Shown piece by piece: positions 4,906 to 40,458 of a stretch of DNA of 64,000 bases. Made by a program: the position numbers and the translations under genes. The notes under the pieces are model-generated. The model saw nothing but the letters and a program-made list of their open reading frames with translations, was not told the DNA's origin and searched no databases. Every line of letters begins with the position of its first letter. The first letter of the stretch is position 1. Source of the stretch: Coriobacteriia bacterium (GTDB lineage: Bacteria; Actinomycetota; Coriobacteriia; Anaerosomatales; JAAXUF01); assembly GCA_038249135.1 (NCBI GenBank), contig JBBRWO010000002.1:3203-67202 (forward strand). The letters are read 5' to 3'.

Positions 4906-5220
4906 CTAGGCCTTAACGCCTTTGACCTTGTCCTTGTCCTCGCGATTCACGAGCATGAACCGCACCACGGGATCAGTGATTCGCAGTACGCGGTCGAGCT
5001 CGGCGATTGCGGCCGGCGCGGTGTGGAAGTCAACAAGGACGTAATCGCCCTCGGTTACCTTGTTGATCTCAAAGGCGAGCTTGCGCTTGCCCCACGAGTC
5101 AACGGTATCCACCACGCCCCCGTCAGCGGTGATAACGCCCTGGACCTTGTCCAGAACGCCCGCACGGGCCTCATCATCAAGAGAGGGGTTGAGCATAAGC
5201 AGCAGTTCGTAAGCCTTCAT
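4906..5220 (-). CDS. rpsF: 30S ribosomal protein S6
   Basis: Begins MKAYELLLMLNPSLDDEA. The ATG at 5220 has a GGGGAGGTG SD. The track start at 5304 is an upstream extension. Confidence 0.95.
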   Translation of the reverse strand: MKAYELLLMLNPSLDDEARAGVLDKVQGVITADGGVVDTVDSWGKRKLAFEINKVTEGDYVLVDFHTAPAAIAELDRVLRITDPVVRFMLVNREDKDKVKGVKA

Positions 5221-5300: not shown

Positions 5301-6389
5301 TCACCGGCTCGCGACTGCGGCAACATCGTCTCCTATGGCACTGACAGGAACCTTACCGAGACCTTCCACGCCACCCGCGCGCCACAGCGGCCAGAGCGCG
5401 CCGACCGCACACAGCACCCCCACCGCAAGCAGCGCAGCCGTGCGAGCGCCGCGTCCCGCCACCCTGATTCCCCGGGAGATCGCCGAGCCGAGACGGCCGT
5501 CCTTTGCCGCCGACGACGCAATGCGTGCAACCTTGGCGCCCGTGGAGAGGACTTCGCCCGCATCCGCCAACACGCCCGTTGCCTGCATCACGCCGGTCAC
5601 CGGCTCGCCGCTGCCCGCAAGCGTGACTCCGGGCGCGACCTCACCCGCAGCCTGTACCTCACTTGCACCTGCGACGCCGGAACCCGCGCCTGCGGTCACG
5701 TAAGCTCCCGAGCCGCTCGTAACCGCGACTCCCGACCCAGCGCCAGACAGAGCAGATACCTCGCCTCCAGCACCCACGCTGATTCCGGGCGCGACCTCGG
5801 CCCCGGCCGGCACCCCCGCCTGTGCGCCAGAGGTCGCCCCGAGTGGCTCGCCCGCCGTCTCCGGCTGCTCCTCTGAGTCCGGTCGCGTCGTCACCGGTGC
5901 CGCAAGAAGAGTCGTCGGATCCAGATACAGGCTGCCTGAGCGCAGCCCCATGTGGAGATGCGTTCCGGCTGAAGATCCGTCGCCTCCGGCAGAGACTGTC
6001 CCAACGCTCCCACCCTCATCGACCGAGTCTCCGCGCACTACCGTCGCTCGATCCAGCGGCAGCAGCGTGATCGACCCCTGCGCCGTCCGAATCGTCGCCG
6101 CGAGCATCGTCACGCCTCCGGCCGCAGGGACGCGGCCGACGAAGGTGACCTCACCAGCCAGCGGCGCCACGACCTCGGCGCCTTCTGCGGCAGCCAGGTC
6201 GAGACCGTGGTGTGTCGCGGAGCTTCCGTCGGCAGCGACATAGGTGGCGCCGAAGCCGAGCTGCACCCCGGCGTCACCACTTCCCAACGGCGATCGAGCG
6301 CCTGCGGCAGCCGGCGCGGCAAACACCCCTGTCGCAATGACAACCGCCGCGATCATTCGACCCATGGAAATTCGTAGTGGAGCATGCAT
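5301..6389 (-). CDS. Secreted M23 (LytM-type) metallopeptidase with Gly/Ala/Ser/Val-rich repeats and a C-terminal TM helix
   Basis: The signal-like N-terminus is MHAPLRISMGRMIAAVVIATGVFAAPAAA. M23 motifs are HHGLDLAA and GTHLHMGLRSGSLYLDP. The ATG at 6389 has a GAGGAG SD. The track ORF 5301..6686 runs across the tRNA. Confidence 0.8.
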   Translation of the reverse strand: MHAPLRISMGRMIAAVVIATGVFAAPAAAGARSPLGSGDAGVQLGFGATYVAADGSSATHHGLDLAAAEGAEVVAPLAGEVTFVGRVPAAGGVTMLAATIRTAQGSITLLPLDRATVVRGDSVDEGGSVGTVSAGGDGSSAGTHLHMGLRSGSLYLDPTTLLAAPVTTRPDSEEQPETAGEPLGATSGAQAGVPAGAEVAPGISVGAGGEVSALSGAGSGVAVTSGSGAYVTAGAGSGVAGASEVQAAGEVAPGVTLAGSGEPVTGVMQATGVLADAGEVLSTGAKVARIASSAAKDGRLGSAISRGIRVAGRGARTAALLAVGVLCAVGALWPLWRAGGVEGLGKVPVSAIGDDVAAVASR

Positions 6390-6529
6390 CGTGATCTCCT
6401 CGCCTTCTGGGCAAGGAACGGGTGTCTGAGGGTTATACGAACAGGTGTTCGACGCGAGAGGCGCAACTCCTGCAAGTTCGCCGAGAACGAGCGACGGCCG
6501 CCCTAGGGGGACGGCCGAGAAAGGCGCGC

Positions 6530-6604
<75 letters not shown>

Positions 6605-6648
6605 GCGCCGCGAAAGTGTATCCCAGCGCGCACGAGCGCCGCAAACAC

Positions 6649-6680
6649 GTAGCGCCGCCAGACGAATCCGGCGGCGCTAC
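6649..6680 (-). terminator. Hairpin terminator downstream of the DUF5679 gene
   Basis: The arms form a perfect 11-bp stem, gtagcgccgcc/ggcggcgctac, with a 10-nt loop. On the minus strand it is followed by GTGTTTGCGG. Confidence 0.55.
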
Positions 6681-6704
6681 GATCACTAACTCAAGTGGCT
6701 TGTC

Positions 6705-6854
6705 TTACGACTTGCCGATCTTGAAGATCTTGGTTCCGCATTCAGGACAGATGCCCTGGCTTGCCGGACGTCCGTTCTTCATGGTGATTTCCTGGGCGTC
6801 CTTCATTTCCCTCTTGGCCTTGCACTTAACGCAGTATCCTTCTTTAGCAGCCAT
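6705..6854 (-). CDS. Small zinc-ribbon protein (DUF5679-like)
   Basis: MAAKEGYCVKCKAKREMKDAQEITMKNGRPASQGICPECGTKIFKIGKS, with CxxC...CxxC. The ATG at 6854 has an AAGGAGGTG SD. Confidence 0.7.
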   Translation of the reverse strand: MAAKEGYCVKCKAKREMKDAQEITMKNGRPASQGICPECGTKIFKIGKS

Positions 6855-7019
6855 TCGCGCAGTCACCTCCTTGTTCGATGCGATCTGGCAACGGCCGCAC
6901 ACCCGGGCAGGCATGGCCGTGGCGCTTTGATGGTCCCCTCGGGGCAGGAACTTCCTGCCTTCACTAGGAAATACTACAGAATCCCGCGCAGTTGTCACGC
7001 CTTGCCTATTTCGCGACTT

Positions 7020-7676
7020 TCAGAGTGCGTTTCTTTCCGAGGTCTTGAGCAGCTTCGCAAGCCACGCGAGCACGGCCGCGCCCATCGCCATAGTGAGCGC
7101 CCACGCGGCTCCGGACGTGGCCCAGAAGGGCTCTGGGAACGTCTGGATCAGCAGCGAGTCATACGCGAATGTCCACGTCCCCGAGGCGAAGAACAACCCG
7201 TGAAACGCCGTGAAGAAGCTGTCGAAATTAGAGACGGCCGCGATGACGGCCAGGATGATCAGTGCCAGCGTGAGGATTGCTCCCGCCCGCAGCGCCACAA
7301 CGATGGCGTCGATCCGCTTACGCCTGAACTTCACCACGATCCACCCGGTCACGAGCAGCGTGAGCACGCCAGTGAAGAGTCGCGCGCGGCTCAGAATCAC
7401 GCGCACGTCGACCAGATGTGAACTCGCGGCCGCGTCGAACCCGGATCGGCCGTCGACAGTGACCGGTAGCGTATCAGCATTGCTCTCCACGACAAACGCG
7501 CGAACCTGCTCGGCGACTTCGAGCATGCGCTCGGAGGGCAGCCCGGCCTCCTCGGCAAGGGAATAGCGCGAGGAGAGGGTGCGCGTGAAGGCGGCGCCTG
7601 TGAGGGGCAGGATGGCGATTCCGGCAACCATCAGCGCGAGTGCGAAGCCAATGGCCCATGCCGAGAAGGATCGCAT
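7020..7676 (-). CDS. Integral membrane protein (TIGR01906/DUF1461-like)
   Basis: Four TM segments with an extracytoplasmic loop, and a C-terminal region FHGLFFASGTWTFAYDSLLIQTFPEPFW. The start at 7676 lies 4 nt after the upstream stop. The family was recalled from memory. Confidence 0.6.
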   Translation of the reverse strand: MRSFSAWAIGFALALMVAGIAILPLTGAAFTRTLSSRYSLAEEAGLPSERMLEVAEQVRAFVVESNADTLPVTVDGRSGFDAAASSHLVDVRVILSRARLFTGVLTLLVTGWIVVKFRRKRIDAIVVALRAGAILTLALIILAVIAAVSNFDSFFTAFHGLFFASGTWTFAYDSLLIQTFPEPFWATSGAAWALTMAMGAAVLAWLAKLLKTSERNAL

Positions 7677-7680
7677 CGCG

Positions 7681-8997
7681 CTACAGCTCGGTCGGGTCGG
7701 CGGGGTACAGCGCGTCGTCGTCGGTCGTAAGGTCGTGCTCGGTCGAAGTGTCGTCGCTCTGGCGATCATCGGCCCGAGACAGTTCGAGTGACGATGCCGT
7801 GACCACGACGTTGCCGCCGGCATCGATAGCGGCGGCAAGCGCCTGATCCGCCGCGTCGAGAAGCTCGTCGACGGTGGTGGCGTCGGTGGGGAGTGACGCC
7901 AACCCTACAGAGACGCTGACGCACGCCTCGTCTACGTTCGTGGCGCCGATCGCCCGGCGCAAATTGTCGGCAAGATGGGCGGCGTCGGCGGCGCTGGGAG
8001 CGCTTTGAGTCGCTGCGTCCTCGGCCAGAAGCACCGCGAACTCTTCTCCGCCGATTCTCGCAGCAAGGTTGGATGTGATGTTGGCATCGTCGGTGGTGTC
8101 GAGACATCCGGTGATCGTCGTGGCGATGGCCTGCAGTAGCTTGTCGCCATGCTCGATACCGAATCGCTTGTTGAACTCGCCAAAGCTATCGATGTCGAGC
8201 AGGATCAGGTGGATCGGACGACCGTCACGGTGTGCTCGGCGGATCTCAGAAGCGAGAGCCTGGAGGAAGAATCCGCGCGAGTAAAGGCCCGTGGCAGCGT
8301 CCAACACGGTCAATGACTGGCGGCCTGACTCCTCTACGCGCTGCTCATGCACCAGCTGCGTGGCGACCGCTGCTGTACCGGCGAGAACCGCGACCTGCCA
8401 CAGATAGCGCACAAAGACGAAGACGGGATCACGGTACAGATCCGAGGTGGCAAACGGCATCGTCACGTGTGGAAGCGCGCCCGCAAGCTCAATCAGTTCC
8501 ATGCCGCCGAGCAGCGTCACGCAGAGAATCGCCAGGCCCCAGGCATCTCGGCGACGTTGGAGGATGAATGTGGCTTCGAGGATGAACAGCGAATACATCG
8601 ACCAGAACCACGAGTTCACACTGCCCGAGAAGTACACGAGGACCGTCACAACCAGCGCATCGAGCGCGAGCTGGAGGTTGTTCCATACGGCGATATTGCC
8701 CAGCCGCTTGTAGTTGAGCTGATAGAACATGTTGTAGATGACAACGAAGCCGAGTGCGACGGCGGGTATCGCCATGCGCTGCACCAGCTCGTGGAGAGGC
8801 ATGACGGTCGAATACGCCAGGCCGGCCAACGTCGAGTACGCAACGAGGACGATCAGGAGCGCCCAGCGGATGCGGACGACGAGTCCTACTCGGCGGATAT
8901 TCGCCTGAAGGGCTTCGATGTCGTAGCGCGTAGGCTGCTCTCGCCACGACACCATGAGGGCGCGTTCGATTCGCTTCTTGAGCCGGCTTGGAGTCAA
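7681..8997 (-). CDS. Membrane-bound diguanylate cyclase (GGDEF domain)
   Basis: There are about 6 N-terminal TM helices, then GLYSRGFF...LILLDIDSFGEFNKRFGIEHGDKLL...RIGGEEFAVLL. The TTG start has a GGAGG SD 8 nt upstream. Confidence 0.85.
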   Translation of the reverse strand: MTPSRLKKRIERALMVSWREQPTRYDIEALQANIRRVGLVVRIRWALLIVLVAYSTLAGLAYSTVMPLHELVQRMAIPAVALGFVVIYNMFYQLNYKRLGNIAVWNNLQLALDALVVTVLVYFSGSVNSWFWSMYSLFILEATFILQRRRDAWGLAILCVTLLGGMELIELAGALPHVTMPFATSDLYRDPVFVFVRYLWQVAVLAGTAAVATQLVHEQRVEESGRQSLTVLDAATGLYSRGFFLQALASEIRRAHRDGRPIHLILLDIDSFGEFNKRFGIEHGDKLLQAIATTITGCLDTTDDANITSNLAARIGGEEFAVLLAEDAATQSAPSAADAAHLADNLRRAIGATNVDEACVSVSVGLASLPTDATTVDELLDAADQALAAAIDAGGNVVVTASSLELSRADDRQSDDTSTEHDLTTDDDALYPADPTEL

Positions 8998-29087: not shown

Positions 29088-29759
29088 ATGGCACGCCAGC
29101 GTAGCGTCTTCGACATAATCGGCCCGGTCATGATCGGTCCGTCCTCAAGCCACACCGCCGGCGCAGTGCGTCTGGGCGAGTTGGCGCGCGCCGTTTTCGG
29201 GGGCACCCCGTCGCGTGTACGCATCCTATTGCACGGCTCATTCGCCTCGACCGGCCCCGGCCACGGCACCGATCTCGCGCTCATCGCCGGCCTCCTGGGC
29301 ATGCGTCCCGACGACGAGCGGATCCCGGAATCCTTCCGCCTCGCCGACGAACTCGGCATGCAGGTCGACTTCGCCGAGGAGGATCTGGGCGACGCCCACC
29401 CCAACACCGCGGTCTTCATCCTCGGCGACGAGAACGGGCGTCAGATGCGCGTGACAGGCTCGTCACTCGGTGGCGGTGACGTGGTCGTGACGGAGATCGA
29501 CTCCTACGACGTGGAGATGACCGGCGAGTTGCCGCTGCTCGTCGTGGGCCACATCGACCGACCGGGCGTCATCGCTGCGGTCACGCGCGTGCTCGCCGAC
29601 AGCGACGTCAACGTCGCGTCCATGCGCGTCTCACGCGAACATCGGGGTGCGGGGGCGCTTATGCTCATCGAGACCGACCACGCCATCAGCGCCGAGACTG
29701 CCGCGCAGATCGATGCACAGCCCGGCACCACCAGCGTCAGGTGCATCGCCGCGATCTAG
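29088..29759 (+). CDS. sdaAB: L-serine dehydratase, iron-sulfur-dependent, beta subunit
   Basis: SVFDIIGPVMIGPSSSHTAGAVRLG, with a C-terminal ACT-like region (GHIDRPGVIAAVTRVLADSDVNVASMRV). Confidence 0.9.
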   Translation: MARQRSVFDIIGPVMIGPSSSHTAGAVRLGELARAVFGGTPSRVRILLHGSFASTGPGHGTDLALIAGLLGMRPDDERIPESFRLADELGMQVDFAEEDLGDAHPNTAVFILGDENGRQMRVTGSSLGGGDVVVTEIDSYDVEMTGELPLLVVGHIDRPGVIAAVTRVLADSDVNVASMRVSREHRGAGALMLIETDHAISAETAAQIDAQPGTTSVRCIAAI

Positions 29760-30495: not shown

Positions 30496-32352
30496 TTACG
30501 CGATTCCGAGGATGTGGGCGATGATACCGCCGAGCAGGAACGCGATGGTGATCGATGACGCCACGAGCCCGAGCGTGTAGACCCAGCCGCGCTCCTTGAG
30601 TACCACCATCACCGATGCGATGCACGGCACGAACAGCGTGATCGTGACCATCGCGACCAGCAGCTGCGGGTCGGTCAGGTTCATCTTGAAGAAACCAGCG
30701 GCACCAAAGTCGCGTCGCACAAAGCCCATCACGAACGCGGTCGCGGCCTGTGGCGGCAGTCCCATCCAGCCCACGGTCAGCGGCTTTGCGACCTTCACAA
30801 TCCAGTCGATCGCGCCCGTGACCTGGAGCGTCGAGATGAAAGCGGCGCCGGCCAGGAAGAAGACGGTGACCTCCTTCATGAAGTGGTAGACCTTCATGCC
30901 CGTCTTGCGGACCACGTTATCGAGACGCGGCAGTCGCAGCGACGGCAGGTCGATGAGCAGCTCCGTCGACTCGCCCGGCACGATCTTGTTCAGCACCGTC
31001 CCCACCAGCACGAAGATGCCGATGAGTATCCCAAAGTACGCCGCCGAGTAGACCGGTGCCGTGTTCGCCATCAGAGCCGCGATGACCGCGATCTGCGCCG
31101 AGCACGGGACCGCGATCGCCATGAGCGCAGTGGCGATGAACCGCTCGCGCCGTGACCCGAGGATGCGCGTGGTGAGCGTCCCCATCGTGATGCAGCCTAG
31201 GCCCAAGATCAGCGGAATCACCGCTCGGCCGTTGAGACCCATCGACGTGAGTGAGCGATCCGCGAGCGCGGCGATTCTCGGCAGGTAGCCGGAGTCCTCC
31301 AGCAGGCCGAGCAGCGCGTAGAAGCTCGCAACAAGTGGCAGGATGACCGCAAGCAGGTACGTGGGCGTCATCGTGAGCACGCCAAACTCGCCGGCAAGGA
31401 TCGTGTACAGCGGGGAGCCTGCTGCGAACACACGCGCGACGAGCTCCTGCACGAACGGAATGTAGTACGTCTGCATGATGTTCACTTCGAGGAAGCCCAC
31501 CACACCGCCCGCGACCCACTGCCCGATCACCACGTACATGCCCGCCAGCAGCGCCAGCAGCATCGGCACGCCGGTCAACGGGTGCATCATCGCGTGCGAC
31601 AGCTTCGCCGAGAAGCTTGCGCCCTGCGTGGTCTCGGTGATGACGTGACCGCACAGGTCGTTGACGCGGTGGCGTCGGCGCAGGTAGATCGCGTCGCGCT
31701 GGGTGCCCGGCTCGACGCCGTGTCGTTCGCTGACCGCCTCGTCGCCCTCAAGCACCATGACCGCCTCGGCACGCGTTCCCACGCGGGTCAGCATCTCGAC
31801 GATCTCGGCCTCGAGTTCGACTTCGGCGCGACCGGCACGCGCGCTCGGAATAGCCGCAACGAGCTCCTCGATCCCCTTGCGCTCGACCGCGACGGTCTCG
31901 ATCACCGGCACGCCGAGCAGATCCTCGAGCAGATCGCGGTCGATGGTGACGCCGCGCTTGCGGGCCTCATCGGCCATGTTGAGCGCCACGATCATGCGCT
32001 TGCCCATGTCGACGAGCTGCAGCGTGAGAAAGAGGTCGCGCTCGAGATGCACGGCATCGACCACGTTGATGATGACGTCGCCGGACAAGATGATGTCGCG
32101 TGCAACGGTCTCTTCGTCGTTAAACGAGCTGACGCCGTAGACGCCGGGAGTGTCGACGATGTCGTGCTCGCCTATCCGGCCGCGCGTCAGCTCGACGGTG
32201 GTGCCGGGAAAGTTGCTGACGTCGACGTAGGTGCCGGTCAGCGCGTTGAACACGACTGACTTGCCCACATTGGGGTTGCCCACGAGTACGACCGTCTCGC
32301 ACCCCGGCCGCACGTCCGTGCTACCCGGTGAGTGACAGCTGGCTTCGCTCAT
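30496..32352 (-). CDS. feoB: Ferrous iron transporter FeoB
   Basis: G-domain motifs VLVGNPNVGKSVVFNALTG and DTPG, followed by a polytopic permease domain. An AAGGAG SD is present. Confidence 0.95.
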   Translation of the reverse strand: MSEASCHSPGSTDVRPGCETVVLVGNPNVGKSVVFNALTGTYVDVSNFPGTTVELTRGRIGEHDIVDTPGVYGVSSFNDEETVARDIILSGDVIINVVDAVHLERDLFLTLQLVDMGKRMIVALNMADEARKRGVTIDRDLLEDLLGVPVIETVAVERKGIEELVAAIPSARAGRAEVELEAEIVEMLTRVGTRAEAVMVLEGDEAVSERHGVEPGTQRDAIYLRRRHRVNDLCGHVITETTQGASFSAKLSHAMMHPLTGVPMLLALLAGMYVVIGQWVAGGVVGFLEVNIMQTYYIPFVQELVARVFAAGSPLYTILAGEFGVLTMTPTYLLAVILPLVASFYALLGLLEDSGYLPRIAALADRSLTSMGLNGRAVIPLILGLGCITMGTLTTRILGSRRERFIATALMAIAVPCSAQIAVIAALMANTAPVYSAAYFGILIGIFVLVGTVLNKIVPGESTELLIDLPSLRLPRLDNVVRKTGMKVYHFMKEVTVFFLAGAAFISTLQVTGAIDWIVKVAKPLTVGWMGLPPQAATAFVMGFVRRDFGAAGFFKMNLTDPQLLVAMVTITLFVPCIASVMVVLKERGWVYTLGLVASSITIAFLLGGIIAHILGIA

Positions 32353-32856: not shown

Positions 32857-35547
32857 TCAGCTCGCGGAGCGACGCCCCGTGACCACTTTCGCGATGTCGA
32901 TCGCTATGACCGGCAACAGAATCGCCGGCAGCATGATCGACCATTCAGTCCAGCCGAGCGGAGTGGTGCGCAGAATCCTGTCGGCGCCGGGAAGGTAAAC
33001 GACGAGCATTTGCAGCGCGATGCCGCCTGCTATCGCAGCGAGCAACAGCGGGTTCTCGGCGCTGGCACGGGAGAAGATCGAGCGCGTCCTCGAGCGAAAA
33101 CTGAGCGAGAACAGCAGTTTCTGGATGACCAGTGCGGTGAACGCTGCCGTCTGAGCGCTGACGACCGCGCCGGCATACTGCGGAGCAAACGCCTCGTGGG
33201 TAAGCGGCACGCCGTATGCGGCCAGTACCCCCACATAGGCGCCCAGCGTTCCCACTGACAACACGGCGCCTCGCGACAGGATGCTGACGACCGAGCGCCG
33301 CGTGATGATGCCCTCGCTCGCGCCGCGCGGCGGACGCTGCATGATGCCCGGCTCCCCTGGGTCGACACCCAATGCCAGTGCTGGCAGGCTGTCGGTCGCC
33401 ATGTTGGTCCACAGCAACTGAACCGGATAGAGAGGCACCGGCAGGCCGGCAACGGTGGCGACAAACATGAGGAAGACCTGGCTCGCGTTGGCAGAGAGCA
33501 GAAACCGCATGAATTTGGTGAGGTTCGTGAACACCACGCGCCCCGAATGAATCGCCGTGACGATCGTGGCGAAGTTGTCGTCGGCGAGAATCATGTCCGA
33601 GGCGTCCTTCGCAACCTCGGTACCCGTCTGACCCATCGCCACGCCAACATCAGCTGCCGAGAGAGCCGGCGCGTCGTTTACGCCATCGCCCGTCACCGCG
33701 ACGACGTGCCCCTTCGCCTGAAGTGCTTGCACGATCCTCATCTTGTGCAGCGGATCGACGCGCGCGATCACCGTGGCGTCATCGAGCGCGCTCGCCAGTT
33801 CCGCGTCCGTGAAGTGCTCGATATCCCGGCCGTTGAGCACGCGTCCCGACTCGGGCAGGCCGACCTCTGTTGCGATCGCCCGTGCGGTCACCTCGTGGTC
33901 GCCGGTCACCATGATCACGCGCACGCCGGCCCCATGCGCCTGGCGCATCGCCTCGGGCACCTCGGCGCGTGGAGGATCGATCAGGCCGATAAGCCCGAGC
34001 AGCGTCATCTGCTGCTCGGCGGTCTCGAGCGCCACGGGTCGTTCGGCGAAGCGGCGCTCGGCGACGGCAAGAGTTCGCAGGCCGTTCTCGGCCATTCCGA
34101 GCACGGCGGCCTCTGCCTCCTTTCGCGTCGACTCGTCGATCACGCAGCGAGCGAGAATGACCTCCGGCGCGCCCTTGGTGAAGGCGACCCAGCCGTCGGG
34201 CTCGCGATGCAGCGTGGTCATCATCTTGCGCTCCGAGGTGAATCCGATCTCGCTCTCACGCGGCGCCTCGGCCTCCGCCGTCGTCTTCTCACGTCCGACC
34301 TTGCCGGCGGCCGCGACCAGCGCCGTCTCCGTGGGATCGCCGATCACGTCGTCCCCGGTCACCTCGGAGTCGTTGACCAGTGCGGCCGCCCGCAGCAACG
34401 CGCGCGCCCACTCCGGCGAGTCCCCGGAAAACTCAGGCTCGCCCAGAAGCCGTCCGCCGAGTCCGTCGAGTTTCACGACCGTCATGCGGTTGAGCGTCAG
34501 CGTGCCGGTCTTGTCGGTGACGATGACGTCGGTGGACCCCAAGGTCTCGACCGAGTGCATCTTGCGGATGATGGCGTTTTGCTCGGCCATGCGCTTCACG
34601 CCGACACCGAGGGTGATGGTGACGACAGCCGTCAGCGCCTCCGGAATCGCCGAGACGGCAAGCGCGATCGCTGCCAGTGCCATCTCGTCGAACGGGCGGC
34701 CCGCCGTCACGCCGGAGATGAACACGATGCTCGAGGCCCCGACGACGAACAGCGCGATCGCTCGGCCTACCCGCTTGAGCTCCTTTTGCAGCGGCGTGAC
34801 CGGCTCCTGGCCACTCGCGTACTCGGCGATGCGCCCAAGCTCGGTGCGGCTACCTGTGGCAACGACCACGCCCGCGCCCCGCCCGCGCTGAACTGTCGCG
34901 CCAAGGCTCGCCAGGTTGCGCTGATCGCCCAACCCGACGTGGTCGAGATCGATGGCCTCAACCGACTTGAGCACAGGCAGTGATTCGCCGGTGAGCGAGG
35001 ATTCATCGACCTCAAGGTCGGCGACCTCGATGAGTCGCATGTCTGCAGGAACCACATCGCCCGCCGCAAGCACGACGACGTCACCCACCACGAGAGCTCG
35101 GGCCGGAATGGATCGTTTGCTCCCCCCGCGCAGGACTGTGGCGATCGGAGCCGACATCTCCCGCAGCGCGTCGACGGCCGCCTGAGCCTTGTCTTCCTGA
35201 ATGAAGCCGAGAAACGCATTGAGAACGAGGATCACGCCGATGACTGCGGCGTCCACGAAGTCTCTGCCGGCTGCAGCAATCAGCGCCGCAGCGATGAGTA
35301 ACCACACCATCAGGTCGTTGAACTGAGAGAAGAACATTCCCAGCCGAGAGGTCCTCTTGGGCGGTGGCAGTTCATTGGGTCCGTCGACACTGAGCCTCTC
35401 GGCGGCGACGCTCGGCTCAAGGCCGTTGTTGGCGCTGCTGCCGGTGCGCTCGAGTGCTTCTTCCACCGTGGCTCGATACCACGCGGGCAGAACAGGGTCG
35501 GGAGTGGCGACGTCATTGAGATTCGCGCGAGTCTGGGTCTTGGGCAC
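32857..35547 (-). CDS. P-type cation-transporting ATPase (P2-like)
   Basis: DKTGTLTLNRM, TGES, MVTGDH and VAVTGDGVNDAPAL motifs, with 10 TM helices. The GTG at 35547 has a GGAGG SD 5 nt upstream. The track start at 35640 abuts the riboswitch. Confidence 0.9.
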   Translation of the reverse strand: MPKTQTRANLNDVATPDPVLPAWYRATVEEALERTGSSANNGLEPSVAAERLSVDGPNELPPPKRTSRLGMFFSQFNDLMVWLLIAAALIAAAGRDFVDAAVIGVILVLNAFLGFIQEDKAQAAVDALREMSAPIATVLRGGSKRSIPARALVVGDVVVLAAGDVVPADMRLIEVADLEVDESSLTGESLPVLKSVEAIDLDHVGLGDQRNLASLGATVQRGRGAGVVVATGSRTELGRIAEYASGQEPVTPLQKELKRVGRAIALFVVGASSIVFISGVTAGRPFDEMALAAIALAVSAIPEALTAVVTITLGVGVKRMAEQNAIIRKMHSVETLGSTDVIVTDKTGTLTLNRMTVVKLDGLGGRLLGEPEFSGDSPEWARALLRAAALVNDSEVTGDDVIGDPTETALVAAAGKVGREKTTAEAEAPRESEIGFTSERKMMTTLHREPDGWVAFTKGAPEVILARCVIDESTRKEAEAAVLGMAENGLRTLAVAERRFAERPVALETAEQQMTLLGLIGLIDPPRAEVPEAMRQAHGAGVRVIMVTGDHEVTARAIATEVGLPESGRVLNGRDIEHFTDAELASALDDATVIARVDPLHKMRIVQALQAKGHVVAVTGDGVNDAPALSAADVGVAMGQTGTEVAKDASDMILADDNFATIVTAIHSGRVVFTNLTKFMRFLLSANASQVFLMFVATVAGLPVPLYPVQLLWTNMATDSLPALALGVDPGEPGIMQRPPRGASEGIITRRSVVSILSRGAVLSVGTLGAYVGVLAAYGVPLTHEAFAPQYAGAVVSAQTAAFTALVIQKLLFSLSFRSRTRSIFSRASAENPLLLAAIAGGIALQMLVVYLPGADRILRTTPLGWTEWSIMLPAILLPVIAIDIAKVVTGRRSAS

Positions 35548-35651
35548 AAAAGCCTCCACACGTTGACGAAACGGACAACGCGGTACCGATGCGACTCTCG
35601 AGGAATAGCTCCAGGGAATCAGGATTCGAGACTCCGGCACGGTATCGCACC

Positions 35652-35742
35652 GAAGGTCTCGTCGCGGAGTGTCCGCCCGGGGCGAATGCCCGAGATGACG
35701 AACGGACCGCCCGGCTCATCGCCGGACCGACTACTCCCCTTC
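35652..35742 (-). ncRNA. yybP-ykoY-like (Mn2+) riboswitch leader of the minus-strand ATPase
   Basis: Minus strand reads GAAGGGGAGTAGTCGGTCCGGCgatgaGCCGGGCGGTCCG...CGGACACTCCGCGACGAGACCTTC. The closing helix is GAAGG/CCTTC. The conserved GGGGAGUAG and GACGAGACC-type 3' segment are present. Confidence 0.7.
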
Positions 35743-35879
35743 GCTGTGGTGATTGTCCATTATGAGCAGCCACGAAACAAGCGACGCTTCCTCCGCGCTA
35801 CAATCCGTCCTGTCCCCGCCGCCCGATGGGCCGGCACAACCAGACCGCCGGAATCGGCGTGCTTGTGGAAGGAATCACC

Positions 35880-36752
35880 ATGGCGTACGCGTCATTCGAG
35901 GAACTGCTGGAGGCCGCAGCGGATGCAGGTGGGCTCGGGCAGGCCGTGCTCGATCGCGAGGTGTTGGAGTCGGGTCTGGGTGCGACCGAACTCCGCGAGC
36001 GCATGGGTCTGGCCCTGACGGTGATGCGCGACGCGGTCGAGGTGGGGCTTGCCGGGCAGGCGCACTCGCGCTCCGGGCTTATCGGCGGAGACGCGGCACT
36101 CGTGCTCGGCTCGCACGCAGGACCTCTCGGCGGAGCGTTCGCCACCGTGCTGGCGACGGCGCTCGCCACCGGGGAGGTCAACGCGTCCATGGGCCGTATC
36201 GTGGCCGCGCCAACGGGCGGTGCGTCGGGGGTGCTTCCGGCGGTCATCCTTACCATCGGGGCGAAGTACGGAGCCAGCGAGGACCAGCTCATCGACGCGC
36301 TCTTCGCCGCAGCAGGCATCGGCAGTGTCATCGCAGCCCGAGCGACACTGTCCGGAGCCATCGGTGGCTGCCAGGCGGAGATCGGCTCGGGCTCGGCGAT
36401 GGCAGCCGCAGCAGCGGTGCAACTCGCCGGCGGTACTCCCGCGCAAGCGGGGCACGCCGCCGCGTTCGCGCTCCAGGGCCTGATGGGACTCGTCTGCGAC
36501 CCGGTGGGCGGCCTCGTGGAAATCCCGTGCGTGTTTCGCAACGCCACCGGAGCCGCAGTCGCACTGTCCGGCGCCGAGATGGCGCGTGCCGGCGTGGAGT
36601 TTCCCATCCCCTTGGACGAGGTGGTGGATGCGATGGATTCCGTCGGGCGCTCTTTGCCGCCTTCGCTGCGAGAGACCGCGCTGGGTGGTCTGGCGGTCAC
36701 TCCCTGTGGTCGAGAGCTCGCCGCACGCGCCTCCGAGCCGCGCGAGCACTAG
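35880..36752 (+). CDS. sdaAA: L-serine dehydratase, iron-sulfur-dependent, alpha subunit
   Basis: GGCQAEIGSGSAMAAAAAV, GLVCDPVGGLVEIPC, and TALGGLAV at the C-terminus. The ATG at 35880 has a GGAAGGA SD. Confidence 0.9.
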   Translation: MAYASFEELLEAAADAGGLGQAVLDREVLESGLGATELRERMGLALTVMRDAVEVGLAGQAHSRSGLIGGDAALVLGSHAGPLGGAFATVLATALATGEVNASMGRIVAAPTGGASGVLPAVILTIGAKYGASEDQLIDALFAAAGIGSVIAARATLSGAIGGCQAEIGSGSAMAAAAAVQLAGGTPAQAGHAAAFALQGLMGLVCDPVGGLVEIPCVFRNATGAAVALSGAEMARAGVEFPIPLDEVVDAMDSVGRSLPPSLRETALGGLAVTPCGRELAARASEPREH

Positions 36753-36825
36753 CCGCTCCGGACTAGCCGGATCCGGCCGCATTTCGCTACTGCCACCGCG
36801 CGCGACATGCTAGCATCGTCGGTGT

Positions 36826-36922
36826 CGAGGGGGAGTAGCGCCCCGAGCGAACGATGCTCGGGGAGGCAGGCCGTCAGCACGGGCTCAGACCCCGGTTCTG
36901 TCCCCTAGCAGCGAGACTCTCG
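36826..36922 (+). ncRNA. yybP-ykoY-like (Mn2+) riboswitch leader of the plus-strand ATPase
   Basis: CGAGGGGGAGTAGCGCCCCGAGCgaacgatGCTCGGGGA...CCCCTAGCAGCGAGACTCTCG. The closing helix is CGAG/CTCG. The conserved GGGGAGUAGC and AGCGAGAC segments are present. An extended -10-like TGCTAGCAT lies at 36808-36816. Confidence 0.75.
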
Positions 36923-36961
36923 GCGGTACGTACACCTACGTTACCTGCCGAGGAGACACCT

Positions 36962-39787
36962 GTGATCAAGACCGACATCTCAGTTGCTGAAGCCGACGGT
37001 GCAGTCGCCGTCCAACCACCCGTCGCGTACCACACACTCACCATCGACCAGGTCGCGGCCGCCCTCGCGACAGACCCTGTCGGCGGCCTGAGCGCGGCAG
37101 AAGCCACACGCCGTCACGCCGAGAACGGGCCCAACCTGCTTCGTGAGACCAAGCCCACGCCCAAGTGGAAGCTGCTGGCGCGCCAGTTCGAGGACTTCAT
37201 GATCTGGGTGCTCATGGGAGCTGCGCTGCTTGCCGGACTCCAGGGCGAGTGGATTGACACTGCGGCCATCGTCACGATCCTGGTACTCAACGCAGTACTC
37301 GGATTCGCGCAGGAGTTCCGAGCCGAGCAGGCGCTTGCGGCGCTGAAGGAACTCTCAGCGCCAACCGCCCACGTGGTACGTGATGGCATCGAGTCCTCCA
37401 TCCACGCCTCGGAGCTTGTCGTGGGCGACGTCGTGGTCCTTGAGGCCGGCGACCAGATTCCTGCCGACGGTCGACTCCAGGAAGCGGCAGCACTGCGAAT
37501 CATCGAGTCCGCGCTGACCGGTGAAAGCGAGCCGGTCCACAAGTCGACCGTGCCGGTCCCAGATCCCAACGCATCGCTGGGCGACCGCGTGGACATGGTA
37601 TTCGCAGGCACTGCAGTCGCCGTAGGCCGTGGCCGCGTGATCATCACTGCCACCGGAACCGCTACCCAGGTAGGCAAGATCGCCGACCTCCTCGCGGAGC
37701 AAGAAGATGAGCAGACGCCGCTCCAGGCCGAGCTTCAGCGCGTGGGCAAGCGTATCGCCCTCATCGTGCTGGTCATCGCCGCCCTCATCTTCGCCGAGCA
37801 GCTCGCAACGGTCTTCGTAAGCACCGGCGACACCTTCGTCGAGGCGATCAACGACCCGGTCTTCCGCGTGGGTTTCACCGGCGCACTCCTGATCGCCGTC
37901 TCGCTCGCGGTCGCCGCGATTCCCGAGGGGCTGCCCGCTGTCGTCACCATCGCGCTCTCGCTGGGAGTGCGTCGCATGGCCGAGCACAACGCGATCGTCC
38001 GGCGCCTGACAGCTGTTGAGACGCTGGGCTCCACCACGTTCATCTGCTCGGACAAGACCGGCACGCTGACGCGCAACGAGATGACGGTGCGCCGCGCCGT
38101 GGTCGGGTTCGACTCCATCGCGATCAGTGCGGACTGGGGCATCGAACCCGAGGACCGCGTGCCGCACGGCGACGACATGGCACTGCTGCTCCAGATGGCC
38201 GCCGCCAACAACGATGCGCGTCCTAAACCGGACGGCGGTTTCCTCGGCGATCCGACGGAGACGGCGCTTCTCGAGGCTGCGAGCCGACTCGCTCCCGGTC
38301 ACCTGCGTCCTCGGCGTGTGAGTGAAGTCCCCTTCGATTCCGAGCGTAAGCGCATGACCACCATCCATGCGCTTGAGGATGAGCGGATCGCGTTCGTGAA
38401 GGGCGGCGCCGACGTGGTGCTCGGCCTGTGCACTCGCGCGCGTATCCGCGGCGAAGTCATCGAGCTCGACGACTCCGGTCGCGAAAAGCTGCGCACCACC
38501 AACGAGAATCTCGCATCGAGCGGGTTTCGCACGCTCGCCTTCGCCACCCGGACCCTCTCCGCCGATGAGGACGTCGAGAGCGAGACAATCGAGCGCGACC
38601 TGACGTATGTCGGCATTCTCGGCCTGGTCGATCCGCCGCGTGAAGAGGTGGCGGCGGCGCTCGCGGAGTGCAAGCATGCCGGCATCAAGGTCGCCATGGT
38701 CACGGGCGACCACGCGCTGACTGCTCGTGCCATCGCGATCCAGATCGGGTTGCTCGATGCGGATGCGCCGGAGACCTCGGTCATCACCGGCACAGAGCTC
38801 GCCTCGATGACCGACCAAGAACTGTGCGCTCGCGCCGAGGACGTTCGTGTCTACGCCCGCGTGAACCCTGAGGATAAGATCAGAATCGTCTCGGCGCTGA
38901 AGAACGACGGCGAGATAGTCGCCATGACCGGCGACGGAGTGAACGATGCGCCAGCGCTCAAGCGTGCTGACATCGGCATCGCGATGGGCAACATCGGTAC
39001 CGACGTGGCCCGAGAAGCCGCCGACATGGTGCTCGCCGACGACAACTTCGCGACGATCGTCGAGGCCGTGGGAGAAGGCCGCACCGTCTTCGATAACCTA
39101 CAGAAGGTCATCCTCTTCCTGCTTTCGTGCAACATGAGCGAGGTGCTGGTCGTGTTCACGACCGCCATCTTCGTCGCGTTCTTCCCTGAGCACGCACTGC
39201 TTGCGCTCCTGCCGTTGCAGTTGCTGTGGATCAACTTGGTCACAGACGGTCCACCTGCGCTCGCGTTGGGCGTCGACCCCGCCGATCCCACGGTCATGGA
39301 CCGTATGCCCCGCGACTCCAAGGAGCCGATCCTCTCGGGTCCGAGGATGAGCGAGGTCATCTGGCAGGGTGCGGTCATGACCGTCTTCGCGCTGGGAGCG
39401 ACGTTCGCTGCCGGCCCCCTCCTCGGCAGCACCGACGGCGCCGAGAACACGATGCTGTTCACCATCTTGGTGCTGTCGCAGAAACTCCATGCGTTCAACT
39501 ATCGCAGCGCGCGCGGTACCGTCTTCTCGATGCAGTCACTGCAGAACCGCTGGCTCAACATCGCCTTCGTGGCGACGGTGGCGTTGCAGATATCGGTCGT
39601 TCACTGGGAGCCGATGCAGAAGCTCTTCAAGACGACCGCACTCGGTACTCAAGAATGGATGCTGGTCGTCGGCTCGGCGTTCGCCTCGTTGCTGGTCATG
39701 GATCTGGTCAAGATAGTCATCGAGCGACGTCTGGCTGCCCGCGAAGCAACGGGCCGCGGTTCCGGTAGAGCGGAGGGTGCACGATGA
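36962..39787 (+). CDS. P-type cation-transporting ATPase (P2A/Ca2+-ATPase-like)
   Basis: CSDKTGTLTRNEM, TGESEPV, MVTGDH and AMTGDGVNDAPAL motifs. The GTG at 36962 has a GAGGAG SD 6 nt upstream. The track start at 36854 lies inside the riboswitch. Confidence 0.9.
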   Translation: MIKTDISVAEADGAVAVQPPVAYHTLTIDQVAAALATDPVGGLSAAEATRRHAENGPNLLRETKPTPKWKLLARQFEDFMIWVLMGAALLAGLQGEWIDTAAIVTILVLNAVLGFAQEFRAEQALAALKELSAPTAHVVRDGIESSIHASELVVGDVVVLEAGDQIPADGRLQEAAALRIIESALTGESEPVHKSTVPVPDPNASLGDRVDMVFAGTAVAVGRGRVIITATGTATQVGKIADLLAEQEDEQTPLQAELQRVGKRIALIVLVIAALIFAEQLATVFVSTGDTFVEAINDPVFRVGFTGALLIAVSLAVAAIPEGLPAVVTIALSLGVRRMAEHNAIVRRLTAVETLGSTTFICSDKTGTLTRNEMTVRRAVVGFDSIAISADWGIEPEDRVPHGDDMALLLQMAAANNDARPKPDGGFLGDPTETALLEAASRLAPGHLRPRRVSEVPFDSERKRMTTIHALEDERIAFVKGGADVVLGLCTRARIRGEVIELDDSGREKLRTTNENLASSGFRTLAFATRTLSADEDVESETIERDLTYVGILGLVDPPREEVAAALAECKHAGIKVAMVTGDHALTARAIAIQIGLLDADAPETSVITGTELASMTDQELCARAEDVRVYARVNPEDKIRIVSALKNDGEIVAMTGDGVNDAPALKRADIGIAMGNIGTDVAREAADMVLADDNFATIVEAVGEGRTVFDNLQKVILFLLSCNMSEVLVVFTTAIFVAFFPEHALLALLPLQLLWINLVTDGPPALALGVDPADPTVMDRMPRDSKEPILSGPRMSEVIWQGAVMTVFALGATFAAGPLLGSTDGAENTMLFTILVLSQKLHAFNYRSARGTVFSMQSLQNRWLNIAFVATVALQISVVHWEPMQKLFKTTALGTQEWMLVVGSAFASLLVMDLVKIVIERRLAAREATGRGSGRAEGAR

Positions 39788-40458
39788 GCGAGGGTCTGGA
39801 CGGTACACAGCTGGCGCTCCTGGCTCATGAGCTCCGGGGGGCGCTGACGGTGGTGCGTGGCCTGAATGATCTGCTACTCACCGGGCTGCCTCCTGCGCAG
39901 CAGATCTCCGCGCTCGAAGGCATCGATCGCGCGGTGCTGCGCGCTAACGCGCTCATCGAGTCGGCCCTCGCAGGTGAGATGCCCGCGCAGGTCGTGTCGC
40001 GAGAGCGCGTGGACCTTGCACCGCTGGTGGCGGGCATGGTCGCCGATCAGCGGGCGATCACGGGCCGTGAGATCGTTCTCGAGGCCTCCGCTGCTCCTGT
40101 CGTTGCGGGCGATGCGAATGCGCTGAGCCGCGTGCTGACCAACCTGATCGACAACGCGCTGAAGTATTCACTGGAGAAACAGACCATCGAGGTGAGCGTC
40201 TCTGTCGAGGGCTCCTCGGCAGTGATCGAAGTCTCTGACCATGGGCCGGGGATTCCCGAGGGCTGTGCGGAGACCATCTTCGAGCCCTTCGAGCGTCTGG
40301 GCCGAGACGCCTCTGTGCCGGGAACGGGACTGGGCCTGTCGGTGGTACGCGGCGTGACGGAGTCGCTCGGCGGCACGATCATCGCCGTGCCTCGCGACGG
40401 CGGCGGCACGATCATGCGGATGACGTTGCCGCTCGCGACGGGCCCAGGCGCGGTCTAG
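39784..40458 (+). CDS. Soluble histidine kinase core (DHp + CA) without sensor or TM domain
   Basis: The H-box is LALLAHELRGALTVV at residues ~11-25. N box LIDNALKYS, G1 DHGPGI, G2 GTGLGLSVV. Its start overlaps the ATPase stop as ATGA. Confidence 0.8.
   Translation: MSEGLDGTQLALLAHELRGALTVVRGLNDLLLTGLPPAQQISALEGIDRAVLRANALIESALAGEMPAQVVSRERVDLAPLVAGMVADQRAITGREIVLEASAAPVVAGDANALSRVLTNLIDNALKYSLEKQTIEVSVSVEGSSAVIEVSDHGPGIPEGCAETIFEPFERLGRDASVPGTGLGLSVVRGVTESLGGTIIAVPRDGGGTIMRMTLPLATGPGAV

Follow-up and report, generated by a model that had tools for sequence, protein, structure and literature searches.

What controls the two P-type ATPase genes that lie on either side of sdaAA in a 64-kb stretch of DNA from a Coriobacteriia bacterium (contig JBBRWO010000002.1; the whole stretch is hereafter called the window), and to which cation would such control respond? 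An earlier note on this DNA had proposed that each of these genes, here designated ATPase A and ATPase B, stands behind its own riboswitch of the yybP-ykoY type. The window contains exactly two copies of the GGGGAGTAG nonamer, one at 35731-35739 (-) and one at 36830-36838 (+), against 0.18 expected by chance. Each copy is located inside the untranslated leader of one of the ATPase genes and is oriented toward that gene. A composite pattern derived from both copies, GGGAGTAG-N38-68-CCCCGG-N14-17-CGAGAC, matched only these two leaders (A and B, named after their genes) in the window and was found in 0 of 100 shuffles. As detailed below, we consider it probable that each of the two leaders senses metal as a member of the yybP-ykoY (Mn2+) riboswitch family, in the form with a three-way junction, and would activate expression of its pump when the cation accumulates. 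The proposal of the earlier note thus held, on the strength of covariance model scores, the defining nucleotides, covariation and the conservation of the leaders together with orthologous pumps.

The two leader elements and their defining nucleotides

A scan of metagenomes with the composite pattern (20 nucleotides (nt), taken from the window) matched at least 120 stretches. Most of the real matches shared a common layout, which consists of helix P1.1, GGGAGUAG, a P1.2 of 2-4 base pairs (bp) and the P2 hairpin, followed by a P3.1 of 9-11 bp, a bulge of 7-8 nt opening with NCA, P3.2, a short unpaired linker, (G/A)CGAGAC and the 3' strand of P1.1. A covariance model, termed R1, was built from 44 non-redundant metagenomic elements; neither the window nor any of its five closest relatives was included. 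Run across the whole window with filters off, R1 returned exactly two strong matches, leader A with 60.2 bits (E 3.8e-15) and leader B with 46.3 bits (E 4.4e-11). The next-best match, at 29619-29711 (-), reached 9.4 bits (E 2.5). The parts of the two aptamers are as follows.

35647-35747 (-), riboswitch A aptamer, three-way junction
35746-35738 / 35656-35648 (-), riboswitch A, helix P1.1
35737-35732 (-), riboswitch A, L1 5' side, GGAGUA
35731-35728 / 35664-35661 (-), riboswitch A, helix P1.2
35727-35709 (-), riboswitch A, P2 hairpin
35707-35699 / 35679-35671 (-), riboswitch A, helix P3.1
35698-35692 (-), riboswitch A, L3 bulge, UCAUCUC
35691-35680 (-), riboswitch A, P3.2 hairpin
35670-35665 (-), riboswitch A, linker ACUCCG
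35660-35657 (-), riboswitch A, L1 3' side, GAGA
36822-36926 (+), riboswitch B aptamer, three-way junction
36824-36831 / 36917-36924 (+), riboswitch B, helix P1.1
36832-36837 (+), riboswitch B, L1 5' side, GGAGUA
36838-36839 / 36911-36912 (+), riboswitch B, helix P1.2
36841-36863 (+), riboswitch B, P2 hairpin
36865-36873 / 36893-36902 (+), riboswitch B, helix P3.1
36874-36880 (+), riboswitch B, L3 bulge, UCAGCAC
36881-36892 (+), riboswitch B, P3.2 hairpin
36903-36910 (+), riboswitch B, linker CCCUAGCA
36913-36916 (+), riboswitch B, L1 3' side, GAGA

The 5' segment, hairpins, CGAGAC segments and closing helices that the earlier note had described were all present in both leaders, and the bounds it had drawn, 35652-35742 (-) and 36826-36922 (+), deviate by at most 5 nt from those of the covariance model. 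In helix P2, GUCCGGC pairs with GCCGGGC (leader A) and CCCCGAGC with GCUCGGGG (leader B). The 3' segment reads GACGAGAC in leader A and AGCGAGAC in leader B, and the closing helix comprises 8-9 pairs in each case. The G+C content of the two copies is about 70%.

The closest described counterpart is the mgtA riboswitch of Streptococcus pneumoniae, a yybP-ykoY member which precedes a PII-type Ca2+/Mn2+ ATPase and forms a three-way junction, in which a single-stranded linker replaces P4 (Martin et al. 2019, PMC6649816). The nucleotides regarded as defining in that study are the 5' side of L1, the invariant AGA on its 3' side, the invariant C-A of L3 and the neighbouring C-G pair of P3.1 (PMC6649816). 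In the window, the 5' side of L1 is exactly GGGGAGUAG in both leaders, and its GGAGUA is invariant across all 70 aligned family members. The 3' AGA followed by the P1 3' strand is likewise present, as CGAGAC in both cases, and the C-A of L3 lies beside a C-G pair of P3.1, the context being CG-UCAUCUC-GGGC in leader A and CG-UCAGCAC-GGGC in leader B. This C-A corresponds to the metal-coordinating residues C40/A41 in Lactococcus lactis. Every real member of the 70-sequence alignment carries GGAGUA, GAGA and an L3 that opens with NCA. C-G and G-C make up the flanking pairs in 64/69 and 68/69 sequences, respectively. P4 is absent from both leaders, with just 6-8 unpaired nt leading from P3.1 to P1.2.

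The structure was also supported by covariation. In a MAFFT alignment that was not fitted to the structure (n=44), 82.9% of the cells were paired as compared to 38-52% in slid controls, double compensatory changes affected 23 of the 33 pairs, and none of 500 shuffles reached the covariation score. For the nine sequences of the window's two orthologue groups, the corresponding values were 88.5% versus at most 48%, with double changes in 17/33 pairs. The model-fitted alignment of 70 sequences, which leans toward the model structure and is supportive only, gave 87.7% paired cells and covariation in 31/33 pairs. An RNAalifold consensus was discarded, as it paired the conserved L1 loop incorrectly and failed to recover P3.1; an explicit structure was used instead and then tested. 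Cargo pointed in the same direction: nearly all genes behind about 60 independent elements encode cation transporters, and the wider spectrum (MntP, TerC, GDT1, CaCA and P-type ATPases) is typical of the yybP-ykoY family.

Competing hairpins and the proposed switch

The P1 3' strand of either leader doubles as the 5' arm of a downstream hairpin, and P1 and this hairpin are mutually exclusive. These expression platforms, and the promoter-like boxes upstream of the aptamers, are located as follows.

36915-36957 (+), riboswitch B expression platform, hairpin of GACUCUCGGCGG with CUGCCGAGGAGAC; the Shine-Dalgarno (SD) sequence GAGGAG at 36950-36955 is buried
35627-35661 (-), riboswitch A expression platform, competitor hairpin CGAGACCUUCGGUGCG-AUAC-CGUGCCGGAGUCUCG
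35759-35764 (-), -10-like box CATAAT, about 13 nt upstream of riboswitch A P1; read by eye, putative promoter
36808-36816 (+), extended -10-like box TGCTAGCAT, about 8 nt upstream of riboswitch B P1; read by eye, putative promoter

In leader B, GACUCUCGGCGG consists of the last L1 bases and the P1 3' strand, while CUGCCGAGGAGAC includes the SD sequence. The hairpin is predicted in the window and in the orthologous loci L001 and L007 (z-scores -2.3, -3.1 and -2.3, respectively), and its stem is conserved among the three although the loops are unrelated. Since formation of P1 and sequestration of the SD sequence exclude each other, we infer that leader B acts as a translational ON switch. The competitor hairpin of leader A comprises 15 bp, starts its 5' arm with CGAGACCUUCGG and uses the 3' side of L1 together with the P1 3' strand. 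No U-tract follows, and the SD sequence lies about 70 nt further downstream. The hairpin is kept in L139, L141 and L144 with compensatory changes (GGUGCG/CGUGCC, GGC/GCC and GGCAC/GUGCC). It may represent a U-tract-poor terminator or a destabilising structure whose formation is prevented by the ligand, which is the least certain step of the model.

According to this model, a rise of a divalent cation in the cytoplasm would cause the L1 loop (GGGGAGUAG / GAGA) to dock on the L3 bulge (UCA...), and this docking would lock helix P1. In leader B, locked P1 would free the SD sequence and thereby turn on translation of ATPase B. In leader A, the hairpin most likely stops or destabilises the transcript, and locked P1 would block the hairpin and turn on ATPase A. 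Because both pumps are P2A-type cation exporters, the arrangement would constitute a feed-forward detoxification circuit. The mgtA riboswitch of S. pneumoniae is likewise an ON switch that operates through competition for the P1 3' strand. The platforms differ, as the streptococcal element employs an intrinsic terminator with a U-run, whereas the SD sequence is hidden in leader B and the hairpin of leader A lacks a U-tract; no terminator-like site was found.

Both elements are thus placed between a promoter-like box and the SD sequence of a P2A ATPase gene, i.e. in the leader of a cation exporter gene. The box TGCTAGCAT is conserved in L007 and L133, and the same place is occupied by TACCCT in L001 and by TACGCT in L113.

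Genes, orthologues and losses

The genes of the locus are the following.

32857-35547 (-), ATPase A, P2A (LMCA1/SPCA/SERCA-like) P-type ATPase of 896 amino acids (aa); GTG start at 35547, SD sequence GGAGG at 35557-35553
36962-39787 (+), ATPase B, P2A P-type ATPase of 941 aa; GTG start at 36962
35880-36752 (+), sdaAA, L-serine dehydratase alpha subunit, between the two modules; the open reading frame (ORF) opens at 35826
30496-32352 (-), feoB, beyond ATPase A

The start codons of the ORF track, 35640 for ATPase A and 36854 for ATPase B, fall within the RNA elements. The earlier note had moved them downstream to GTG 35547 and GTG 36962, and both revisions were supported. The product starting at GTG 35547 is identical to a database protein of exactly 896 aa, and this codon also aligned with an ATG in L003. 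GTG 36962 aligned with the orthologue starts GTG (L003), ATG (L007) and TTG (L001), each preceded by a conserved GAGGAG. The two ATPases share 42% identity, and both possess the full Pfam P-type architecture. The intervening sdaAA is a bystander gene, whose start is likely ATG 35880, which aligns with the ATG of L003. Downstream of ATPase B, an ORF of 224 aa (39784-40458 (+)) encodes HisKA and HATPase_c domains only, with neither a sensor nor a membrane part. This ORF begins 4 nt ahead of the stop codon of ATPase B, which suggests that a histidine kinase, either truncated or soluble, is translationally coupled to the pump.

Elements of both types accompany orthologous pumps. Among sequenced metagenome-assembled genomes (MAGs), relatives of ATPase B with clearly homologous leaders are found in L001 (72% protein identity) and L007 (50%). 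B-type leaders in front of ATPase B orthologues scored 57.0 bits (L007), 43.5 bits (L082/L133), 39.9 bits (L113) and 35.3 bits (L001) with R1. A-type leaders in front of ATPase A orthologues with 87%, 73% and 63% identity scored 58.6, 51.6 and 48.0 bits, respectively, and are located in differing gene neighbourhoods. The L007 locus (6001-8788), from a Coriobacteriia MAG, carries its ATPase B orthologue in several reading-frame pieces, the first ORF having 81 aa; either the gene has become a pseudogene or the assembly is faulty here, and the riboswitch is intact despite the broken gene.

The following gene orders were observed.

L082 and L133: feoB, then divergently riboswitch B and ATPase B
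L001 and L007: the same, plus sdaAA inserted ahead of riboswitch B
Window, L003 and L139: as in L001 and L007, plus ATPase A between feoB/feoA and sdaAA

These orders indicate that ATPase A with its own riboswitch is a later insertion into an older arrangement of feoB, riboswitch B and ATPase B. The earlier note had spoken of duplicate modules. This view has to be revised, as synteny shows that the ATPase A module was acquired and is not a local copy of B; local gene duplication as the origin of both modules is thereby rejected. The A module accompanies ATPase A orthologues into unrelated neighbourhoods. Proximity of feoB, a gene for Fe2+ uptake, to the riboswitch-pump module is conserved in L001, L007, L082, L133 and L139 (in the latter with feoA) over 50-90% identity, and Fe2+ uptake thus adjoins a presumed Mn2+/Ca2+ export system.

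The elements have also been lost. In L003 (MAG CAYMAN010000001.1), whose pumps are both about 90% identical to those of the window, both riboswitches are cleanly deleted, and R1 finds nothing in this locus. The deletion sites, 4915-5075 and 5940-6000 of L003, correspond to window 35562-35737 and about 36753-36912, respectively. Upstream of ATPase A, ...CAGGGGGA joins straight to the SD sequence GTGTGGAGG, and upstream of ATPase B the sdaAA stop codon directly abuts the SD-sequestering hairpin. In addition, an ATPase A orthologue with 71% identity (L142 / L143, 1403-1497) is preceded by a decayed A-type copy of 19.3 bits. Its P2 and P3 are intact, but GGGGAGUAG is changed to GGGGUGG, which destroys L1, GAGAC is lost, and the element ends directly at the SD sequence, so that it looks like a pseudo-riboswitch. 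These losses could be taken to mean that the elements are relics without regulatory function and that the pumps are constitutive or respond to other signals. We regard this as very unlikely, because the copies in the window have retained every conserved loop nucleotide, the helices and the competing hairpins, and because copies have been maintained, with compensatory changes, across 50-87% protein divergence, which indicates purifying selection.

Family assignment, ligand and significance

Screening of the whole window with Rfam 15 at gathering thresholds yielded a tRNA gene (6533-6604 (-), 70.7 bits) as the sole match, and no RF00080, the yybP-ykoY model. The earlier note had expected both leaders to exceed the gathering threshold of RF00080 (45 bits) and had named scores below it at both loci as grounds for giving up the assignment. 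Neither leader reached the threshold, and there was no match even at E<=10, over 35500-37050 or with each 131-nt element alone.

This failure is one of several results that weigh against the assignment to the yybP-ykoY family. RF00080 did not match any of seven orthologous loci either, even at E<=10, and none of the other Rfam families gave a relevant match to the window or its orthologues. The linker UNAAA, which is invariant in the streptococcal elements, is found neither in leader A (ACUCCG) nor in leader B (CCCUAGCA) nor in the orthologues. The L3 sequences UCAGCAC and UCAUCUC lack the ACAUAC of Escherichia coli and MntP-type elements, and ligand preference could therefore differ. A scan for a consensus sigma-70 promoter and a canonical terminator found nothing. 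The R1 score is partly circular, as the training set was gathered with the pattern derived from the window. Finally, the deletion of both elements in the closest relative and the decay in one orthologue argue that they are dispensable.

Controls put two of these points into perspective. About 22 chance matches of the pattern inside coding sequence scored at most 16.8 bits with R1, which bounds the circular contribution at about 17 bits. The RF00080 misses do not reflect a gap in the library, because the same library finds the mntP leader of E. coli K-12 (L018 2462-2558) with 41.6 bits (E 7e-10). As this control stays under the 45-bit threshold itself, a default Rfam scan would miss it. On this control, RF00080 expects L1, P2, the P3.1-L3-P3.2 leg and, 3' of these, one more hairpin. 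Canonical four-way-junction members have a P4 hairpin and L3 ACAUAC and score on RF00080, whereas none of this holds for the copies in the window. Five members of the R1 training set gave sub-threshold RF00080 matches of 18.8-29.8 bits. Conversely, R1 scored E. coli mntP, at the RF00080 coordinates, with 21.3 bits (E 0.004), which provides a weak and indirect tie to validated members. The RF00080 miss is a matter of model blindness to a high-GC lineage lacking P4, and the blind spot is lineage-wide, because RF00080 sees none of the orthologous leaders either.

The absence of RF00080 matches in leaders and orthologues could alternatively mean that the leaders are structured without sensing metals, e.g. 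as protein-binding sites or generic attenuators, and that GGGGAGUAG is coincidental. Folding z-scores of the whole leaders, -1.6 and +0.4, are unremarkable and would fit this idea; single-sequence minimum free energy folding, which gave these values, proved uninformative for this fold and was abandoned as a criterion. We give this explanation the least credence of all, since R1 scores of 46-60 bits contrast with at most 17 bits for chance matches, the defining loop nucleotides are all present, the helices covary and the cargo consists nearly throughout of cation transporters.

Another Rfam family bears on the classification. RF02617 ('SSRC10') is matched by rumen-type copies with 25-32 bits (L132 859-978; L047 1477-1598) and does not match the copies in the window. 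Its consensus comprises GGGAGUAG, a P2 hairpin, CCGUCAAUACGG (P3.1 plus L3 UCAAUAC), a UGAAA linker, CAGCGAGAC with CGAGAC, and a terminator, i.e. the same three-way-junction layout as in the window. This suggests that RF02617 is the Mn2+ riboswitch of streptococci in its three-way-junction form (mgtA type), filed as a small RNA and not as a riboswitch.

If the leaders are riboswitches of the yybP-ykoY family, which cation do they sense? Mn2+ is the default expectation, because no nucleotide implicated in metal binding has been lost; the ligand is thus probably Mn2+ and possibly Ca2+. Riboswitches of the same fold that are triggered by Ca2+, or by Ca2+ and Mn2+, and that control Ca2+ export would fit the nature of the pumps: their best-scoring NCBIfam models describe Ca2+ ATPases of the PMR1 and SERCA types, and the nearest solved relatives of both are, in this order, the Listeria Ca2+-ATPase LMCA1, human SPCA1 and SERCA. 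Moreover, the in vitro affinity of the S. pneumoniae aptamer is higher for Ca2+ than for Mn2+ (PMC6649816). Both L3 bulges in the window follow the pattern UCA..(A/U)C, which is associated in metagenomes with CaCA exchangers and P2A pumps; MntP and GDT1 are instead accompanied by the ACAU type. At the sampled metagenome loci, L3 of type UCA was associated with CaCA (20), Na/Pi (8), P2A (6), OAD-beta (3) and CitMHS (2), and type ACA with MntP (9), GDT1 (3) and P2A (3). However, in S. pneumoniae Mn2+ is by far the better activator of read-through, and MgtA protein is not raised by Ca2+ stress (PMC6649816). In addition, a CaCA-family protein of Bordetella pertussis, which is encoded downstream of a yybP-ykoY riboswitch in the BP3410 leader (reported Rfam E 8.5e-15), exports Mn2+ (PMC8546581). 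With all Mn2+-site nucleotides kept, including the C-A of L3, a Ca2+ response appears unlikely, although it is the strongest competitor of the Mn2+ reading. A Ca2+-specific subclass, suggested by Na_Ca_ex cargo, was considered as well and is weakened by the same Bordetella exporter.

Some three-way-junction elements from rumen and gut, whose L3 is UCAGUAC or UCAUCAC, stand before genes that do not belong to the usual Mn2+ regulon, namely those for Na/Pi cotransporter-PhoU (e.g. L050, L085, L064), the oxaloacetate decarboxylase beta subunit of a Na+ pump (L038/L041/L063), CitMHS citrate-metal transporters (L037/L094/L132) and an AI-2E transporter (L068).

The pumps themselves differ at positions which presumably map to the ion sites, by analogy with SERCA. 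ATPase B carries the canonical motifs IPEGLP in transmembrane segment 4 (TM4), N..SEV in TM5 and TDGPP in TM6, and ATPase A the atypical motifs IPEALT, N..SQV and TDSLP, respectively. In relatives of ATPase A, TM4 reads IPEALT (P0001-P0012, at least 70% identity), TM5 reads N..SQV (P0001-P0021, at least 61% identity) and TM6 reads TDSLP (20 of the 21 proteins P0001-P0021, the regular expression having missed P0011), as opposed to TDG(L/P)P in ATPase B and canonical pumps. The next relatives of ATPase A, with at most 53% identity, show the canonical motifs again, and the one of them that was examined, L145, has no riboswitch. Because the three motifs differ consistently between the two clades, there is indirect support for the suggestion of the earlier note that ATPases A and B differ in ion specificity. 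The leaders might even belong to a functionally shifted branch of the family from a Coriobacteriia-like lineage, with non-canonical L3 and linkers other than UNAAA, that responds to Ca2+ or distinguishes it from Mn2+, riboswitch A being paired with a pump of remodelled ion site (PEGLP to PEALT; E to Q in TM5). This idea, which we hold to be doubtful and slightly less likely than a plain Ca2+ response, would make the locus a two-channel system with different ion set-points.

Returning to the yybP-ykoY riboswitches that we favour, the comparison with known members is as follows. The mgtA riboswitch of S. pneumoniae and the elements of the window have in common the three-helix layout, the replacement of P4 by a linker, the L1 and L3 nucleotides and the PII/P2A ATPase cargo, here pumps related to LMCA1, SPCA1 and SERCA with a PMR1-type model on top; they differ in linker sequence and platform, as noted above. 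With L. lactis yoaB and E. coli mntP/alx they share GGGGAGUAG in L1, the 3' AGA, L3 opening with NCA, L1-L3 docking about the metal (as predicted here) and metal-exporter cargo, which in the case of yoaB is a P-type ATPase as well. Two yybP-ykoY copies per genome are normal, e.g. in E. coli and Bacillus subtilis. The BP3410 element differs from those of the window by its CaCA cargo and by its recognition through Rfam. It illustrates that transporters of 'calcium-type' families can export Mn2+ when they are controlled by this riboswitch, which bears on the reading of LMCA1-like pumps. A novel architecture without P4 was considered and rejected, as the three-way-junction form has already been published (Martin et al. 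2019). Hence, the elements of the window add members to this known form, with a cargo class already described, and leave the understanding of the riboswitch class unchanged.

Their significance lies elsewhere. As the Rfam Mn2+ model misses this high-GC lineage without P4, genome annotations under-count such riboswitches, and where the elements go unrecognised, the start codons of the pumps can be mis-set into RNA, as in the long calls of the ORF track. One genome that uses the same type of aptamer with two platforms, putative SD sequestration and a hairpin competing with P1, offers a natural comparison, complemented by a sister genome that has deleted both. Finally, the sub-clade of pump A, with altered ion-site residues and a riboswitch of its own, is a candidate for defining what distinguishes Mn2+ from Ca2+ selectivity in bacterial P2A pumps.

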